Below the pieces are notes generated by a model that was not told where the DNA came from, searched no databases, and was given only the letters and a program-made list of their open reading frames with translations. Both the position numbers and the translations under genes were made by a program. From UHGV virus genome UHGV-0203461: a stretch of DNA of 50,795 bases; one strand, written 5' to 3'. This document shows positions 42,398-50,795 of this stretch, one piece after another (position 1 is the first letter of the stretch; each line of letters opens with the position of its first letter). Source of the DNA: a virus.

Positions 42398-43219
42398 TTA
42401 ACCGAATTTACTTTCTTCAAGTTGACCTCTATTAGCCATGTTTTTTAATTCTTCATCTGTATATTGTCCAAATGTCTCGTTAAAATTATGAAACTTAGTC
42501 TTATTTTTTCTACTTGGTATAGGTTTATAATTCTTTTCTAACGCCGTAATTAAATAGCCTGTAACACTTTTTACACTCTCCGTATTTTTGACCAACCTCA
42601 ATTTTTCCTCTAAATAGTCAATCCCCTTATTTGTATGTATGAATACATCAACAATTTTTTCAATGTCTTTAGATTCTAAATCAAAGTATTTTTTAATTTT
42701 ATCCACAACCACCGTAACCTTTTTGTTGTTATTGTTATTGTTATTGTTATTGTTATTCCCCTCGTCACGAGTTTCGTTACGTACACCGTTACGGAGTTCA
42801 TCAAAATATTCTTCAAATATCTGTTTGAATTTCTTATTTTCTATATGTTCATAAATTAGCATTAGTAATGACTTGTCTTTAATCTCTCTTAATTCTTTTC
42901 TAACACAATTCTCCATTGGTGTTCCTGCTCTATTGAGATTATATTTAGCCCAATTCTTGATTGCTATTTCTCTAGTTTCAGAATTATAGCTTATAAGTTG
43001 ATGGTGATTAATAAATCTGTCCATAACTGCATTTGTAGATTCTAAAGTCCAACCTATTTCAAAAGCTATTTGTTTTTTAGTTATTGTATATATTCCAATT
43101 TGAGTAGTATGAGGGTTAGTTAGTAAGTATATATAAAATAGTTTATCCTCTACTGAAAATTCTTCTTGTATCTTTGGGTCAGTCCAAAAATTTGTATATA
43201 TCTGTCTGAAAATTGGCAC
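42398..43219 (-). CDS. phage replisome organizer / replication initiator (N-terminal Phage_rep_org_N-like) with an internal poly-Asn linker
   Basis: 273 aa. N-terminus FRQIYTNFWTDPKIQEEFSVEDKLFYIYLLTNP. Confidence 0.55.
   Translation of the reverse strand: MPIFRQIYTNFWTDPKIQEEFSVEDKLFYIYLLTNPHTTQIGIYTITKKQIAFEIGWTLESTNAVMDRFINHHQLISYNSETREIAIKNWAKYNLNRAGTPMENCVRKELREIKDKSLLMLIYEHIENKKFKQIFEEYFDELRNGVRNETRDEGNNNNNNNNNNNKKVTVVVDKIKKYFDLESKDIEKIVDVFIHTNKGIDYLEEKLRLVKNTESVKSVTGYLITALEKNYKPIPSRKNKTKFHNFNETFGQYTDEELKNMANRGQLEESKFG
42725..42757. repeat. (GTT/ATT)n trinucleotide microsatellite encoding a 13-Asn run
   Basis: gttgttattgttattgttattgttattgttatt on the + strand. Lies within the replisome organizer CDS. 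Confidence 0.8.
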
Positions 43220-45157: not shown

Positions 45158-45283
45158 TCCCCCTTAAAGTTCAAGTCCTCTTTGCTTACATTCTTCCATA
45201 TAAGTTACACACTCTATGTAAAACTTTGGTGTAGGTACTTTCTTATGTCTTATACAAAATCTTAGAAACCATCTTAGATTCAA

Positions 45284-45613
45284 CTAAATCACCCCCTTTC
45301 TCTTTTTCATTACATCTCTATCTTTTAGTGCATTTTTCATTACATATTCTTCAAAAGAGATTAAATCTATCCTATATGAATTACCTATAGGAATTACAGT
45401 ATAATGGTTTTGTGCCATTGCTTCCCTTATCATGTTTCTCGCAGTTGCATCTGACACTTTTAAGTACTCACGAAATTCTTTTACTGTAACTAAATCCATC
45501 CTCTTTATTTTTTCTCTATCTAAAAACATCTTGATGATGTCTGTTGTATCATCTCTTTGCATTAATTCTTGTACTAAGTCTTTTGTGTCTATGAATTGTA
45601 ATGCTACACTCAC
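45284..45613 (-). CDS. HTH DNA-binding protein, excisionase/MerR-like (tentative)
   Basis: 109 aa. VTVKEFREYLKVSDATARNMIREA. Confidence 0.35.
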   Translation of the reverse strand: MSVALQFIDTKDLVQELMQRDDTTDIIKMFLDREKIKRMDLVTVKEFREYLKVSDATARNMIREAMAQNHYTVIPIGNSYRIDLISFEEYVMKNALKDRDVMKKRKGVI

Positions 45614-45629
45614 TTTTATCTCACCCTTT

Positions 45630-45827
45630 CTATCTTCCAGCTAGTTTATCTAATGTAACGTCTAAATAGTCAGCTATTTTTATTAATGTATCTATAGTTG
45701 GATTTTTATTTTCTCCTCTTAAAATCGCATATAAATTCCCTGAATCTACGCCTATTTCTTTTGCTAATTTCCATGCTTTTAAATCTCTATCTTTTAAAAT
45801 TTTATTTATGTTGTCATTAATTGCCAT
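45630..45827 (-). CDS. XRE-family HTH regulator
   Basis: 65 aa. LKAWKLAKEIGVDSGNLYAILRGENKNPTIDTLIKIADYLDVTLDKL. Confidence 0.7.
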   Translation of the reverse strand: MAINDNINKILKDRDLKAWKLAKEIGVDSGNLYAILRGENKNPTIDTLIKIADYLDVTLDKLAGR

Positions 45828-46264
45828 TATTTTCCTCCTTTGATATACTATATTTGTAGGATATATCCTATATCTTTTTATGAAAGTTGGTGATATTATG
45901 CAGTTCAGTAAAGATATATTACATACTCTTACTTTAGAAATTCTTAAGGAAAAATATGATTTTAAAAGTTCTTCTGAAGAAGAACTTTTAAAACATTACC
46001 ATGAAATCTTTTTGAAACTTTCAGAAGTCAATAATAGTTTTTCTAAAGGTGATGGTCTCAGTGTCTTTAAACAAATGTAGGTACTAAATTATATTTAAGA
46101 GCTTCTTTGCAAAAATCTAAAATATCTTTTGAGGAAAGGATACTTTGTTCATTTTCATTCAATGTATTAAGTATCCTTTTAGCTATTTGTAACTCTTCTT
46201 TTGATAATATTAATTCCGTTTCATTATTTACATTGTTCACTACACTTTCAAATGAAATTTTCAT

Positions 46265-46459
46265 TTAATTACACACTCCTTTAATTTCGGTATTTTCTGA
46301 ATCACTTTGTTGCTCCAGTTTTTCATACTCAACTTCTTTTGTACATATGCAACATATTTTAGGCTTCAATCCTTTTTTAACTTCTACCTCATTATCAAAC
46401 CCACAATATGGACACTTGCAAAAATATTTTACTCTTGAATCGCTTGTATTATTTTTCAT
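46265..46459 (-). CDS. zinc-ribbon small protein
   Basis: 64 aa. CKCPYCG...CCIC. RBS AGGAGG. Confidence 0.35.
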   Translation of the reverse strand: MKNNTSDSRVKYFCKCPYCGFDNEVEVKKGLKPKICCICTKEVEYEKLEQQSDSENTEIKGVCN

Positions 46460-46517
46460 GTATTTAACCTCCTAGTTAATAATTAATTAAAACAATATAT
46501 TTCAAAATATTCTGTAT

Positions 46518-47156
46518 TTAGTTCTCAAAATAACTCAACTGCTTGTATGGTCTTTCTGACTTTATAACCTTTATACAATCATCTATAATTTGTATTAAAT
46601 TATTAGATGTGTCAAAGTCTATATCTTCCCATTTCTCCACTCCGAGAATTAGGAATAGCCTTGCTTTCACTTGGTTGTATTCTTTATTAGCTTTGTCTAT
46701 ATCCAGTCTATTCTTTATGTATTTAGAATACTGTTGTTTCTTAGAGCATGTTATCTTACACAACTTTTTATATTCTTTTATTGTTCCTTTTAAATCTCCT
46801 ATAGTTCCTGTAAGTTCTGTTATTACATTTTGTTGTGCTTGATATTGACCAGTTTGTCGAATAGTTGGAAGCACTTCATCAAATACCCAACTCTCAAACT
46901 TTTCTGCGTTTGGAAGATTTGAACCTACTATTAATCTGTAAACATCACCCTCAGTTATCAAAGCAATCTTAATACCATTAATTTTAAACCCCTCGTGTTT
47001 CACTACCCCTTTGCAATGTCTTAAAATTGCATCATTGGTATTTTTATAACCTAATGACTTTGCAATATCTTTTCCTACAAAGTAAGGCTTATTATCAATC
47101 TCTGCCATTCTTATTTGTCCAAACTCCATCTTTTCAAATATTTGTAAGTTATTCAT
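46518..47156 (-). CDS. Bro-N-domain antirepressor (start revised to the second ATG, MNNLQIFEKM...)
   Basis: RBS AGGAGG 8 nt upstream of the internal ATG at 47156. Bro-N N-terminus. C-terminal domain shared with 34754-35494. Start overlaps the RHH gene stop. Confidence 0.65.
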   Translation of the reverse strand: MNNLQIFEKMEFGQIRMAEIDNKPYFVGKDIAKSLGYKNTNDAILRHCKGVVKHEGFKINGIKIALITEGDVYRLIVGSNLPNAEKFESWVFDEVLPTIRQTGQYQAQQNVITELTGTIGDLKGTIKEYKKLCKITCSKKQQYSKYIKNRLDIDKANKEYNQVKARLFLILGVEKWEDIDFDTSNNLIQIIDDCIKVIKSERPYKQLSYFEN

Positions 47157-47325
47157 ACTTATCAACCTCCTGTTCATCTTTTAAGTCCTGTAAATCCTCA
47201 AATTCTTTCCATAAGATATTTATTATAAAAGCATTTTTACTTAATCCTTTTCTTTGAGATTGTCTATGTAGCTCTTCATTTAATTCGTCTGGCATTCTAA
47301 CAGTTACTCTCTTCTTTGCCGTCAC
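47149..47325 (-). CDS. ribbon-helix-helix protein, 58 aa (VTAKKRVTVRMPDELNEELHRQSQRKGLSKNAFIINILWKEF...)
   Basis: Absent from the ORF track. GTG start with RBS GGAGGTGG 7 nt upstream. Translationally coupled to the downstream antirepressor. Confidence 0.5.
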   Translation of the reverse strand: MTAKKRVTVRMPDELNEELHRQSQRKGLSKNAFIINILWKEFEDLQDLKDEQEVDKYE

Positions 47326-47342
47326 TTTTGAACCACCTCCTT

Positions 47343-47410
47343 GTTTATTATATTATCATTGCGTCACCTTTGCGTCAACACTTTTTTTGAAATAATTTAC
47401 GTGGTATAAT
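47343..47410. promoter_or_regulatory. divergent promoter region: + strand TTGAAA-N17-TGgTATAAT, - strand TTGACG-N17-TAATAT, with TTGCGTCA direct repeats
   Basis: Direct repeats at 47359-47366 and 47370-47377, spaced 11 bp, overlap the - strand -35 box. Lies between two divergent RHH genes. Confidence 0.5.
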
Positions 47411-47447
47411 AGTGACATCATTTAGACTTAAGGAGGGTGCTATATTT

Positions 47448-47615
47448 ATGCCATCAAAATTACCGAGATACACACTTAGAATAGATAACAATCTACTTGA
47501 AAAAATCAAGTATATAGCTGAAAGTGAAGGTCGTTCTGCCAACAAAGAAATAGAACAATTAATTAAAAAACATGTTGAAAGTTATGAAAAAATAAATGGC
47601 AAAATTAATGTTTAA
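47448..47615 (+). CDS. Arc/CopG-type ribbon-helix-helix protein (55 aa from the ATG at 47448)
   Basis: RBS AGGAGGG 10 nt upstream. YTLRIDNNLLEKIKYIAESEGRSANKEIEQLI. Confidence 0.5.
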   Translation: MPSKLPRYTLRIDNNLLEKIKYIAESEGRSANKEIEQLIKKHVESYEKINGKINV

Positions 47616-47626
47616 GTTAATAAAAA

Positions 47627-47764
47627 TTAAATATTTTTTAAATTCTTGCTAATCACTAATAGTATGTACTCATTTACTGACATACCTTTTTGATTAGCTT
47701 TTTCTTTGCATTTATTATATAATTCTTCTGTAATACTCAAAGTATATTTCTTTTTATTACTCAT
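47627..47764 (-). CDS. ribbon-helix-helix protein, 45 aa (MSNKKKYTLSITEELYNKCKEKANQKGMSVNEYILLVISKNLKNI)
   Basis: Absent from the ORF track. RBS AAGGAAGTGA. Immediately downstream of repeated element B. Confidence 0.4.
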   Translation of the reverse strand: MSNKKKYTLSITEELYNKCKEKANQKGMSVNEYILLVISKNLKNI

Positions 47765-47820
47765 GTAATCACTTCCTTTTCAAAATATTCTGTATTTAGT
47801 TTTCAAAGTGCTATTAATCT

Positions 47821-48633
47821 TTAACCTAACATTGATATTTGATTGTTCTTTTTAAACTTATTAATAAAGTATATTTGTCCCTTACCAGTAATCTTAGGTG
47901 TTTTAGTAATACTTGTATGACCATCTGGATGTACTCTTGTACCTTCTTTTGTTTCTATAACTCCTAAATCTACACTTTTTTGAGTTGGTGTATTGTAATC
48001 CTCACCTTTACGTTTTATTAAGTAACCATTATTTCTTAACCAGTCAAATAATCTATTTTGTCCTGTATCAATTCCATTTTGTCTAAGCAATTTTGCTAAT
48101 TCTCCAACTAGGATTGAATTGTCAGAAGACGCTACCGAATCAGCAAACAGTACTTTTGGTTGTTGTAACTGGATTACCTTATCCTTTTCTTGATTTTCTA
48201 ATTGTAGTTGTTCTTTTTCCTCAACTTCTATTAATAACTGTTGCAATGCTTCTTTGTACGTAGTTGGTAATTTAGGTTGCTGTTCATTTTCTTTTACTCT
48301 AAAATAGTTATTAACCAATTCTCTTTGTACTGTCCAAGCTAAATCATCTGTTAGAGATTTTACTAACATTAGATAACCACTTTCAGTTATTAGAATCCCA
48401 TTTGGAGCAAATTTACTAAAACCATACAACTCCAAGCTTGGTACGATTTTCGTACTGACCTCAAAATAATCAATATTTTCTATAAAGTATTTTTTATTCT
48501 CAGTAAAATTTCTTTTTGCTGTTCCTTCTGCCCTTTCATGAATTAAGTCAATTTCTTTAAATGTTACAACTCTTTCACCTTTAAACTCTTTAACTTGTAA
48601 TTTTTTATCATTTATTAAAACTAAGTTATTCAT
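47821..48633 (-). CDS. antirepressor (ORF6N N-terminal domain, KilAC C-terminal domain)
   Basis: 270 aa. Confidence 0.7.
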   Translation of the reverse strand: MNNLVLINDKKLQVKEFKGERVVTFKEIDLIHERAEGTAKRNFTENKKYFIENIDYFEVSTKIVPSLELYGFSKFAPNGILITESGYLMLVKSLTDDLAWTVQRELVNNYFRVKENEQQPKLPTTYKEALQQLLIEVEEKEQLQLENQEKDKVIQLQQPKVLFADSVASSDNSILVGELAKLLRQNGIDTGQNRLFDWLRNNGYLIKRKGEDYNTPTQKSVDLGVIETKEGTRVHPDGHTSITKTPKITGKGQIYFINKFKKNNQISMLG

Positions 48634-48835
48634 ATATTCCTCCCTCTTGTATTATTTTTAATATATCTACATCCAAAGCCTGAGCTAATTTACATAATGT
48701 ATCTACTTTAGGCATATATTTATCCTTTTCCAAGTCACTAATTGTTGTTTGAGCTATACCTGTGATTTTACTCAGTTCTGATTGTGATAACATATTGTTT
48801 TTTCTATAATATTTAAGTTTATATCCTATTGACAT
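48626..48835 (-). CDS. XRE-family HTH regulator
   Basis: 69 aa. LSQSELSKITGIAQTTISDLEKDKYMPKVDTLCKLAQAL. Confidence 0.7.
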   Translation of the reverse strand: MSIGYKLKYYRKNNMLSQSELSKITGIAQTTISDLEKDKYMPKVDTLCKLAQALDVDILKIIQEGGIYE

Positions 48836-48985
48836 TAACTCACCTGCCTTTTACTAACTATATATCGTTAATTTAATTATATATGTATTTTTATCCCTCG
48901 TCAACGTTTTATCGTTAATTTTTTTCATAAAAATATGTTATTATTGATTTGAACGATTTAACGTTAAAACAAAGGAGGTATTAAA

Positions 48986-49222
48986 ATGGATTTATTAACA
49001 GCAATATCAAAACGTATATTAGATTTATGTAAAGAAAATGATATTACAGTAAACAAGCTTTGCACTTTAGCTGGTGTAACACAATCTACTGTAGATAGCA
49101 TTTTAAAAGGTAAAAGCAAGAATCCTGGTATATGCACTATAAAAAAACTTTGTGATACTTTAGAAATAACAATAATTGATTTTTTTGATAATCCTTTATT
49201 CAAAGATTTAGATATTGATTAA
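48986..49222 (+). CDS. XRE-family HTH regulator
   Basis: 78 aa. ITVNKLCTLAGVTQSTVDSILKGKSKNP. Followed by hairpin CGTCTGC-loop-GCAGGCG. Confidence 0.6.
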   Translation: MDLLTAISKRILDLCKENDITVNKLCTLAGVTQSTVDSILKGKSKNPGICTIKKLCDTLEITIIDFFDNPLFKDLDID

Positions 49223-49371
49223 TACAGAAATTAATATTCAACTTTCGTCTGCTTTTTGGCAGGCGTATTGTTGTTTGCTCTATTTCCATCTAATCACCTC
49301 TTTTGAATATTCTGTATCTATTTCTTAACACATTATCTCAGTACACCATGTTATAATTAACTTAAATTCTA

Positions 49372-49584
49372 ATGAAAGTTGGTGTTATCATGAAGTTTGT
49401 TTATGTTAAGATATTTAATAACTGGATTGATATAACTGATATTGGCTCTATAAATGGCTGTAATGCAATTGAATATATTAATGAAAACCTTGATAAAATG
49501 TACTCTAGTAATTATGTTTCTATAAATTACAAAGATAAAAACTATTGCATTCATCCATCATGTATTCAAATAGTTACAAAATAA
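49372..49584 (+). CDS. hypothetical protein
   Basis: 70 aa. Followed by a hairpin plus T-run at 49596-49630. Confidence 0.3.
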   Translation: MKVGVIMKFVYVKIFNNWIDITDIGSINGCNAIEYINENLDKMYSSNYVSINYKDKNYCIHPSCIQIVTK

Positions 49585-49666
49585 AGTGTTTATCTCTCTT
49601 TAAAAAACTTTTAAGGGAGATATTTTTATTTTATATTTAGTTTTCAAAGTGCTGTTGTGATTTAAC

Positions 49667-50458
49667 TTAATTTTTGCTTAAATCACTTGATATTCCATAT
49701 TTTAAAGCCATATCTTTTACAATAGCAACATACCCCTCTATTAGCTTCTTATCATCTTGTATTACATCTAGATTGTTAACTTTCTCTCTTTTAGATTCAG
49801 ATACACCTTCTTCTGCCATTTTTCTTCTTTTATTAATTAATCTTCTATGCAAATCAACTCCAAATCGCTTATTTAATAATTCATAACTTTCTGTTCTAAG
49901 CATATTTATATGTTCAAAACCACCTTGTTTTTTTGCTATTCTTGCAATTAGTTGATGTGTATTTGTTCTCCAACTATTTGAGTCTAATGAAACTACATCT
50001 TTTATTGTTTCAACCTCTGTCTTTGCTTCTAAAGCAATGCTATTTGCTTGATTAACTTGAAGTCTTAAATCTTTCATTTCTTTTAAACTTTCTATTAATA
50101 CATCTTCTATACAAGTTGGCTTATGTTGCTTAACTTTGAAATATGTTTCTTCTAAGTTATCAAACTGCTCCCAAGCTTTGTCAGTATCCAATATTTTGCA
50201 GTGTCTATTTGCTCCTCTTTCAGTCCAAAGATACATTTTTGAAGTAAATTTTAGGTTTTCATATTCTGTATGAATACCTTTAAAATTTTTTAAATCATCA
50301 CCTTGCAATAAAAAATAATGTTTACCTTCAATAAATCTATCTTTGTTATTGTTAAAATTGTTGCTTATATTTCTTGCATCTGTTTCATATACATCTGCTA
50401 GTTGCTGTGTAGTTAAAACTCTTTCGTTATTTCTTTCTATTACTTGTAAGTTATTCAT
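49667..50458 (-). CDS. ORF6N-domain antirepressor
   Basis: 263 aa. ERVLTTQQLADVYETDARNISNNFNNNKDRFIEGKHYFLL. Confidence 0.65.
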   Translation of the reverse strand: MNNLQVIERNNERVLTTQQLADVYETDARNISNNFNNNKDRFIEGKHYFLLQGDDLKNFKGIHTEYENLKFTSKMYLWTERGANRHCKILDTDKAWEQFDNLEETYFKVKQHKPTCIEDVLIESLKEMKDLRLQVNQANSIALEAKTEVETIKDVVSLDSNSWRTNTHQLIARIAKKQGGFEHINMLRTESYELLNKRFGVDLHRRLINKRRKMAEEGVSESKREKVNNLDVIQDDKKLIEGYVAIVKDMALKYGISSDLSKN

Positions 50459-50687
50459 ATTTTTCAGCTCCTTTTTCTTTAAATGTACTTTTAGTACAGT
50501 TGTTTTTCAAAAAAATATACTCTATTGAAGTATTGAAATAAGCTGCTATTTTTACAGCTGTATTTAGAGACGGTACTCTTTCGCCATTCTCTAAGAAAGC
50601 TATATACCTACTTGTAAGACCTAATTCAGCTCCTAACTGATTTCTACTTAGTCCTTTTTGTATTCTAAAATCTTTTAGTTTATTCAT
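50451..50687 (-). CDS. XRE-family HTH regulator, cro-like
   Basis: 78 aa. LSRNQLGAELGLTSRYIAFLENGERVPSLNTAVKIAAYF. Divergent from the cI-like gene at 37-402 across the window ends. Confidence 0.7.
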   Translation of the reverse strand: MNKLKDFRIQKGLSRNQLGAELGLTSRYIAFLENGERVPSLNTAVKIAAYFNTSIEYIFLKNNCTKSTFKEKGAEKYE

Positions 50688-50714
50688 TTTTTCACCTTCT
50701 TTTACTTTATCTTA

Positions 50715-50743
50715 TGTACTAATAGTACAGTACTATTAGTACA
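50715..50743. promoter_or_regulatory. two adjacent 15-bp near-palindromic operators TGTACTAATAGTACA / AGTACTATTAGTACA in the cro-cI intergenic region; third site TGTACTTTTAGTACA at 50485-50499
   Basis: TGTAC-N5-GTACA dyads seen directly. The third copy precedes the ORF6N antirepressor start. Confidence 0.45.
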
Positions 50744-50795
50744 TTGTCAATAGCTTTTTTAAAAAAAATGAGCTATAATTGATAATTAAGAACTA

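Follow-up and report, generated by a model that had tools for sequence, protein, structure and literature searches.

The subject of this analysis is a repeated DNA element of about 35 bp in the 50,795-nt virus genome UHGV-0203461. This whole stretch of DNA is called the window below. Four copies of the element, A to D, lie on the minus strand among the genes for three antirepressors (Ant1, Ant2 and Ant3). The window is the whole genome, in permuted form, of a temperate phage that belongs to the phiC2/phiCD119/CDMH1 group of Clostridioides difficile phages. Megablast matches to positions 45500-50795 were to C. difficile temperate phages only (phiMMP03, CDKM9, phiC2, CDMH1, phiCD119 and others), and in the annotated relatives this is the usual lysogeny and early-lytic region. 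At the left end of the window are a cI-like gene (37-402) and an open reading frame (ORF) of integrase size (1725-2843), both on the plus strand, and almost all of the remaining long ORFs are on the minus strand. Because of this gene layout, we regard the region that carries the element as the start of the early lytic operon, which runs on the minus strand from a promoter-like site at 50750..50722.

Read in the sense of the mRNA, the element consists of a first part, AG[C/T]AC[T/C]TTGAAAA[C/T]T, and a second part, TAAATACAGAATATT. The copies in the window are as follows.

46500..46535, minus strand: copy A; part 2 is intact and part 1 is degenerate, AGTTATTTTGAGAACT
47778-47812, minus strand: copy B as a whole, starting 8 nt past the stop codon of the ORF6N/KilAC gene 47821-48633
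47798..47812, minus strand: copy B, part 1, AGCACTTTGAAAACT, identical to the boxA block of the host 16S-23S spacer
47784..47799, minus strand: copy B, part 2, CTAAATACAGAATATT
49639..49653, minus strand: copy C, part 1, AGCACTTTGAAAACT, starting 13 nt past the stop codon of Ant3 (ORF6N, 49667-50458)
49625..49638, minus strand: copy C, part 2, degenerate and truncated, AAATATAAAATAAA, at the edge of a 300-bp insertion
49300..49329, minus strand: copy D; part 2 (ATAGATACAGAATATTC) is kept and part 1 is lost, and a ribosome-binding site follows

The initial annotation of this DNA had described such a repeat, and the repetition is real. Copies A (46500-46529) and B (47778-47807) are identical at 29 of 30 positions, B and C share 82% identity over 44 nt, and the weaker copy D shares 73% identity with A over 30 nt. 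The 29-mer core had no chance match in 100 shuffles. Its placement at the 3′ ends of antirepressor genes is likewise borne out for A, B and C (49625-49653 in full). Copies B and C lie in untranslated RNA, 8-13 nt past the stop codon. Copy A is the exception in that it overlaps the final codons and the stop codon of the Bro-N antirepressor gene 46518-47177; its part 1 is degenerate because it encodes the end of Ant1 (..SYFEN) and the stop. Copy B, which reads GAUUAAUAGCACUUUGAAAACUAAAUACAGAAUAUU in the RNA, is followed on its 3′ side by 19 nt with a ribosome-binding site (AAGGAAGTGATTAC) and by the ATG of a 45-aa RHH-like (ribbon-helix-helix) gene, whose product gave sub-threshold matches to RHH families. 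As had been claimed, B and D precede similar ribosome-binding sites and RHH-like starts, but the RHH gene after D is a remnant of about nine homologous codons, intact in relatives as MEREQTTLRIPEDL... The two TTTGAAA half-sites that had been ascribed to every copy are present in B only; A has TTTGAGA and TTTGAAA, C has no second site and D has neither.

A scan of IMG/VR with an 18-mer core returned 99 stretches in 55 distinct contexts, and C. difficile isolate genomes were the source of nearly all of them. An nhmmer search added further, more diverged copies. The element was found in 100 distinct flank contexts. When BLAST was run with the 43-nt element, strong matches were found in C. difficile phages only, including the more distant phiCD24-1 and phiCDKH01. 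The information-content profile delimits a sharply bounded block of about 30 nt with the consensus AG[C/T]AC[T/C]TTGAAAACTAAATACAGAATATT (mRNA sense). This block is nearly invariant and its flanks are unconserved, including the spacer of about 12 nt after the upstream stop codon. Its best conserved portion is the middle (TTGAAAACTAAATACAGAATATT), not the TTTGAAA sites, the second of which is poorly conserved, with low information content among 101 unique copies.

Every copy is in the sense orientation relative to the flanking ORFs. The block takes up the space from the stop codon of one gene, an antirepressor (or Cro-like) gene, to the ribosome-binding site of the next, and both genes differ from context to context. 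On the upstream side there are antirepressor C-termini of at least six kinds, besides a 65-aa XRE gene and further small genes. The downstream partners are unrelated (RHH-like proteins, a Zn-ribbon protein whose start is about 60 nt away, an Xis-like protein, hydrophobic peptides of 31-38 aa, or none), and their start codons are mostly at a nearly constant distance of 31-37 nt from the anchor, with the end of the element 16-22 nt before the start. The two parts are separable. Copies that follow the 65-aa XRE gene hold part 2 only (GTTGGAAGATAAAAATTAAATACAGAATATT), and locus L201 has a part-1-only site, a lone boxA of the host leader type described below, between an Ant gene and the next ribosome-binding site. 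The first copy in L201 directly follows a cro-like gene.

Two further observations concern individual copies. In related prophages (L088 2574, L038 7368, L041 10515 and L057 4049) the copy is followed by a gene for a 31-38-aa hydrophobic peptide (MKNKEKEIIIRGILIGIFYFLGIVFSNT...) that resembles the small membrane toxins of type I toxin-antitoxin systems. Local tandem duplications within part 1 are present at L100 2620 (TTTGAAAACTAGCACTTTGAAAACTAA) and L256 5432 (CTTTGAACTTTGAAAATT), where they displace the stop codon of the antirepressor gene and give rise to a new or a second boxA-like core.

No consensus RNA structure was apparent, as RNAalifold predicted zero pairs for 36 diverse copies and single-sequence folds of the element were no better than those of shuffles. 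Weak hairpins can be drawn, AAAUA/UAUUU in part 2 and others upstream of part 1, but none of them shows covariation. A search of the window against Rfam 15 gave chance-level matches only (E above 1), none of them on the element. Given the lack of structure and of an Rfam match, the element fits a linear protein-binding RNA motif. No sigma-70-type promoter was found in the element on either strand. It was also absent from the promoter sequences of a C. difficile transcription start site supplement, which is uninformative since lytic genes are silent in lysogens. A literature search for the sequence string of the element produced no relevant match. Several other candidates were set aside: an intrinsic terminator (the element has no terminator-like site and no conserved structure), an integron or attC-like cassette site and replication iterons (there are no inverted repeats and the spacing is on the kilobase scale), and a CodY box (the CodY-like stretch lies in the poorly conserved 3′ edge).

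Part 1 of the element matches the boxA of host ribosomal RNA (rrn) operons. The comparison was prompted by a likeness of the core to the rrn boxA of Gram-positive bacteria (Bacillus subtilis, Staphylococcus aureus and Mycobacterium tuberculosis), which was not used as evidence. For host reference, 43 rrn loci (L103-L145) were found via a 16S primer sequence of C. difficile. In every locus the leader has [A/T]GAAC[T/A]TTGAAAATTAAACAG as its first conserved block (the leader reads AGAACTTTGAAAATT), and the final block of the spacer ahead of 23S is TTAGCACTTTGAAAACTGCATA. The longest string that leader and spacer have in common, which is the classical criterion for boxA, is ACTTTGAAAA. This host block agrees with Escherichia coli GCTCTTTAACAA at 8-9 of 12 positions. 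When scored against E. coli GCTCTTTAACAA or GYTCTTTAANA, copies B and C match at 9/12 and the GTACCTTG variant at 7/12, and the host's own boxA deviates likewise (consensus from PMC5725501).

Copies B and C hold the exact AGCACTTTGAAAACT of the host spacer block, and this 15-mer is also the commonest variant among the phages (25 of the 100 distinct contexts). In some relatives the match to the spacer block extends to 17 nt (TTAGCACTTTGAAAACT), and a copy in L256 carries an exact leader-type 17-mer. When the whole 50.8-kb window was compared with host rrn non-coding DNA, the longest exact match was the 16-mer TAGCACTTTGAAAACT in copy B. In the host loci (284 kb) the degenerate motif G[ACT]AC[ACT]TTGAAAA[CT]T is confined to rrn leaders and spacers, and 129 of its 130 matches in the phage loci (959 kb) are inside the element. 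Among 67 distinct phage contexts, variation falls at positions 3, 6 and 14, with A4, T7, T8 and GAAAA invariant, and these three positions are the ones that differ between the leader and spacer versions of the host. An IMG/VR scan with the 15-mer returned mostly chance metagenomic matches, and the C. difficile-derived loci alone were informative. Comparison with the rrn boxA of the same species has been used to validate BoxA sites outside rRNA, including those of CRISPR arrays (PMC7665894).

The exact host leader-type 17-mer GAACTTTGAAAATTAAA is also present in a heterogeneous set of unrelated viral contigs (L247, L250 and L266; L246, L269 and L253/L260). There it adjoins or separates tRNA-like 3′ ends, as judged by eye, and is also seen directly upstream of ribosome-binding sites. 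This hints at a possible wider occurrence of signals like boxA among Firmicute phages. The 16S-23S spacer of the host carries one to three extra TTAGCACTTTAAGCAAC modules.

The element marks points of gene-module exchange between phages. In phiCD119, window positions 45274-46529 and 47778-48289 are joined via a single element (L003 4988-5017), so that phiCD119 equals the window minus 46530-47777 and therefore matches the expected product of recombination between copies A and B. Homology to CDMH1 begins exactly at 46500 and 49627, and the breakpoints seen with these two phages are thus 46500/46529, 47778 and 49627. Gain or loss of whole antirepressor-element units, a comparison that the initial annotation had proposed, is indeed seen among the relatives, exactly at the element. 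As expected of a linker at mosaic junctions, the conserved block has unrelated flanks, with 55-100 distinct contexts, and inter-phage breakpoints at its edges. CDMH1 has one intact element at the place of copies C and D, which are therefore halves of a single element that an insertion has divided; D is accordingly not the independent variant it had been taken for.

49324..49626, plus strand: insertion relative to CDMH1, about 300 bp, with an ORF at 49372-49584 (70 aa, no Pfam match) and a hairpin at 49590-49620

The small plus-strand ORFs 45880-46080 and 49372-49584 share a 31-nt block (45875-45905 and 49367-49397) that is 84% identical and covers the ribosome-binding site and the first codons (ATGAAAGTTGGTG.TAT.ATG), and the rest of the two proteins differs. 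This block is a second repeated sequence of the junction type, on the strand opposite to the element.

The antirepressor genes next to the element belong to three modules, each with a strong promoter-like site, that have the following genes and control sites; the terminator-like hairpin downstream of copy A is given in the last line.

49667..50687, minus strand: Module 3, a Cro-like helix-turn-helix (HTH) gene (50451-50687) overlapping Ant3 (ORF6N, 49667-50458)
50750..50722, minus strand: Module 3 promoter-like site, with an operator inverted repeat (50714-50744) and the repeats ATGTACTAATAGTAC/GTACTATTAGTACAT
47821..48835, minus strand: Module 2, an XRE gene (48626-48835) overlapping Ant2 (ORF6N+KilAC, 47821-48633)
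48904..48876, minus strand: Module 2 promoter-like site, with three copies of AACnnTTaTCGTTAA within 48856-48967 (48856/48903/48952)
48986-49222, plus strand: Module 2 divergent gene, XRE / HTH repressor-like
46518..47325, minus strand: Module 1, an RHH gene (47149-47325) overlapping Ant1 (Bro-N, 46518-47177)
47378..47350, minus strand: Module 1 promoter-like site, with two copies of TTGCGTCA at 47359-47377
47412-47615, plus strand: Module 1 divergent gene, Arc-like, repressor-like
45959..45994, minus strand: terminator-like hairpin with a perfect 16-bp AU-rich stem and a U-rich tail

The region 45630-50795, together with 37-402, has the appearance of three to four tandem genetic switches. In each, a plus-strand repressor-like gene is divergent from a small HTH/RHH gene on the minus strand, the end of which overlaps the beginning of the antirepressor gene, and each has its own promoter-like site and repeat operators. 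A comparable divergent promoter region is bound by the XRE repressor of phiCDKH01 (PMC11172241). None of the operator repeats of the modules resembles the element. The DnaD-like replication protein gene (42398-43219, minus strand) encodes an unbroken run of 12 asparagines, and no C. difficile CRISPR repeat was found in the window.

The genes that come next lie on the other strand, which leaves the minus-strand transcript with long ribosome-free stretches past the antirepressor genes. These measure 789 nt after copy C, 301 nt after copy B (past the 45-codon ORF) and 239 nt after copy A (past two small ORFs), and their C/G ratio is 1.0-1.1, compared with 0.54-0.63 in coding RNA. A hairpin (49620-49590) comes right after C. 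The strong terminator-like hairpin at 45959-45994 is about 500 nt downstream of copy A, within the 239-nt untranslated stretch and inside the plus-strand ORF 45880-46080; being palindromic, it would fold on both strands. Like a boxA, the copies are on the transcribed strand, downstream of a promoter-like site and, except for copy A with its overlap of coding sequence, in ribosome-free RNA.

These features point to an rrn-type BoxA. We assign a probability of about 0.45 to the reading that the element is a BoxA site for NusB and S10 (NusE) that mimics the boxA of the host and also acts as a recombination connector of antirepressor modules. Part 1 in the transcript would be bound by the NusB-S10 complex of the host, and RNA polymerase leaving an antirepressor gene would be converted into an rrn-type, Rho-resistant elongation complex. 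The modified polymerase could then cross the ribosome-free stretches that are antisense to the opposite-strand repressor genes and reach the next early genes and the replication genes. For a modification that protects polymerase against Rho, the end of the last translated gene would be the most useful place. A boxA about 35-50 nt from a start codon could also influence how the gene that follows is translated, as at suhB of E. coli. Part 2 (TAAATACAGAATATT), which is equally conserved, might provide a contact for NusA or of the linker type, or a site for a phage factor; in rrn complexes the linker is contacted by NusA and other factors (review PMC8632103). The element at the same time serves as a patch of homology for the gain, loss and exchange of modules, because the block is identical in otherwise unrelated contexts. 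More tentatively, we propose that temperate phages of C. difficile carry several N-independent copies of an rrn-type BoxA per early operon, which would hijack NusB/S10 for passage across the opposite-strand immunity genes and double as a standard cassette connector, with part 2 as a second recognition module.

Several points weigh against a BoxA of this kind, for which all of the support comes from sequence comparison. Part 2 is at least as well conserved as part 1 and persists without it, both in copy D and in the copies after the 65-aa XRE gene, which implies that something besides BoxA is also under constraint. No counterpart of part 2 was found in the host rrn loci. Module 1 would be without a good boxA, because part 1 of copy A is translated and degenerate and has the critical C replaced by U. 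Read-through may be dispensable, since every module comes with a promoter-like site of its own. Three unrelated 15-mer matches to host rrn non-coding DNA occur by chance elsewhere in the window. Antitermination of the rrn type is documented mainly against Rho and in Proteobacteria, and its role in Clostridia is assumed by conservation; the literature examined yielded no documentation of Nus/BoxA antitermination in Clostridia. Finally, the boxA blocks of the host double as the 5′ strands in the processing stalks of 16S and 23S: the leader block is paired to the beginning of the 16S-23S spacer (CCTACTGTTTAATTTTGAAAGTTC), and the spacer block pairs, if G-U wobbles are included, with the 3′ flank of 23S (ATATATGTGTAGTTTTTAGAGTGTTAGC). 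Mimicry could therefore be aimed at another factor related to rRNA.

Among the alternatives, we consider it unlikely, yet a serious possibility, that the element is purely a recombination linker or inherited junction, kept uniform through homologous exchange (for example by a phage Erf-type annealing protein) and used as an A/U-rich 5′ leader for the next gene, its likeness to boxA being coincidental. Its standing as a rival follows from the survival of part 2 alone, the coding and degenerate part 1 of copy A, the modules' own promoters and the fact that Nus binding is itself a prediction from sequence. The coincidence of inter-phage breakpoints with the element, the 100 distinct flank combinations, the nearly constant 31-37 nt to the downstream start codon, the conservation of part 2 without part 1 and an Erf-like gene downstream in relatives are all as such a linker would have them. 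However, exchange alone leaves unexplained why the element should match the host spacer boxA over 15-17 nt and, in one copy, the leader over 17 nt, why the motif has zero background outside rrn and the element in about 1.2 Mb, why the variable positions are shared with the host, and why the adjoining 12-nt spacer varies freely. An improbable alternative is a BoxA/Nus site that mainly represses or modulates translation of the adjacent downstream gene, as at suhB, and is not an antiterminator. In most contexts the element does end 16-22 nt before the start codon, and boxA sites within 50 nt of start codons regulate suhB and many other genes (PMC5725501). On this account, however, copy C would have no gene to act on, the start codon of the Zn-ribbon contexts, about 60 nt away, would be distant, and the great diversity of the downstream genes would be unexpected.

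Equally concerned with RNA is the proposal that the element is a processing or decay site, or the target of a trans-acting antisense RNA, that splits the polycistronic early mRNA and mimics a strand of the processing stalks, not boxA. The position exactly between cistrons and the stalk pairing of the host blocks are in keeping with it, but the phage has no complementary partner strand or conserved structure and there is no Rfam match, which makes it highly improbable. Least probable is a DNA operator for an RHH or other DNA-binding protein, acting for example via the palindrome GAATATTC, which about half of the copies contain, or via the CodY-box-like AATATTTTGAAAA. A direct-repeat operator of RHH proteins was the proposal of the initial annotation, and it draws on the two TTTGAAA sites 23 bp apart in B and on the RHH-like genes after several copies. 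It is not supported: the second half-site is unconserved and the middle is conserved best, the element has no promoter-like site and is found where transcription units end, genes of other kinds than RHH follow many of the copies, and the strict single-strand orientation in all phages is unexpected for a symmetric operator. What remains of the duplicated regulatory cassette first described is a repeated non-coding unit tied to antirepressor cassettes, without direct-repeat operators. Combinatorial control of the three antirepressors, formerly attributed to the element, may still be exerted by the modules, which have their own promoter-like sites and operator repeats elsewhere, but not through the element.

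A candidate BoxA in this position has both likenesses and differences to known systems. As with the BoxA of rrn leaders and spacers, the RNA motif is linear, is on the transcribed strand and needs no hairpin; it is identical over 15-17 nt to the host spacer boxA, near to the leader boxA and variable at the same positions. Unlike these, it is in phage mRNA between protein genes, about 1 kb from the promoter and in 2-4 copies per operon, is fused to a conserved part 2 and has no processing stalk after it, and its binding is presumed. The nut sites of lambda and P22, which combine boxA and boxB and act with N, are likewise phage elements of the early operon that follow a cro-like gene, or a cro-like gene plus ant, and have a boxA that resembles host rrn boxA. 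In lambda, nutR is directly after cro, the same position as that of the first copy in L201. In contrast with nut sites, the element lacks a conserved boxB hairpin in 36 diverse copies, is accompanied by no identified N-like protein (no search was aimed at one), belongs to phages of a Gram-positive host and occurs several times at module junctions. The BoxA sites of the suhB 5′ untranslated region and of CRISPR leaders (PMC5725501, PMC7665894) resemble it in that they match the species' own rrn boxA and lie at most about 50 nt from a start codon or ahead of long untranslated RNA exposed to Rho. Those sites are chromosomal, mostly from Proteobacteria, Bacteroidetes and Cyanobacteria, whereas the element is found in temperate phages of a Clostridium-like host.

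The surroundings of the element, as distinct from the element itself, recall the immI region of P22 (mnt / arc-ant), with the plus-strand Arc-like gene of Module 1 divergent from a minus-strand RHH gene that precedes an antirepressor gene, and with multiple antirepressor modules within one phage. We know of no repeated 3′ element of this sort in P22. Conserved boundary or linker sequences are present at gene junctions of mosaic lambdoid phages, and these too are short sequences at module borders on which breakpoints fall. The element of the C. difficile phages differs from them in its specific, host-derived-looking sequence and its fixed orientation, and these two properties argue for a function of its own.

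Very little is known of how the change from lysogeny to lysis is controlled in C. difficile phages, which have an effect on the expression of toxins and are candidate agents of therapy. If the element works as a BoxA, it would be a concrete and mutable handle on the read-through of early genes. Control by Nus factors and BoxA would then extend from lambdoid phages and rRNA to Firmicute phages, and antitermination based on BoxA would be described for the first time in phages with a Gram-positive host. A regulatory signal that mimics the host would also double as a standard connector in the modular evolution of immunity regions. Should the linker role alone hold, the element would still explain the gain and loss of antirepressor cassettes in this phage group, and it provides a 30-nt marker by which such junctions can be found in prophages.

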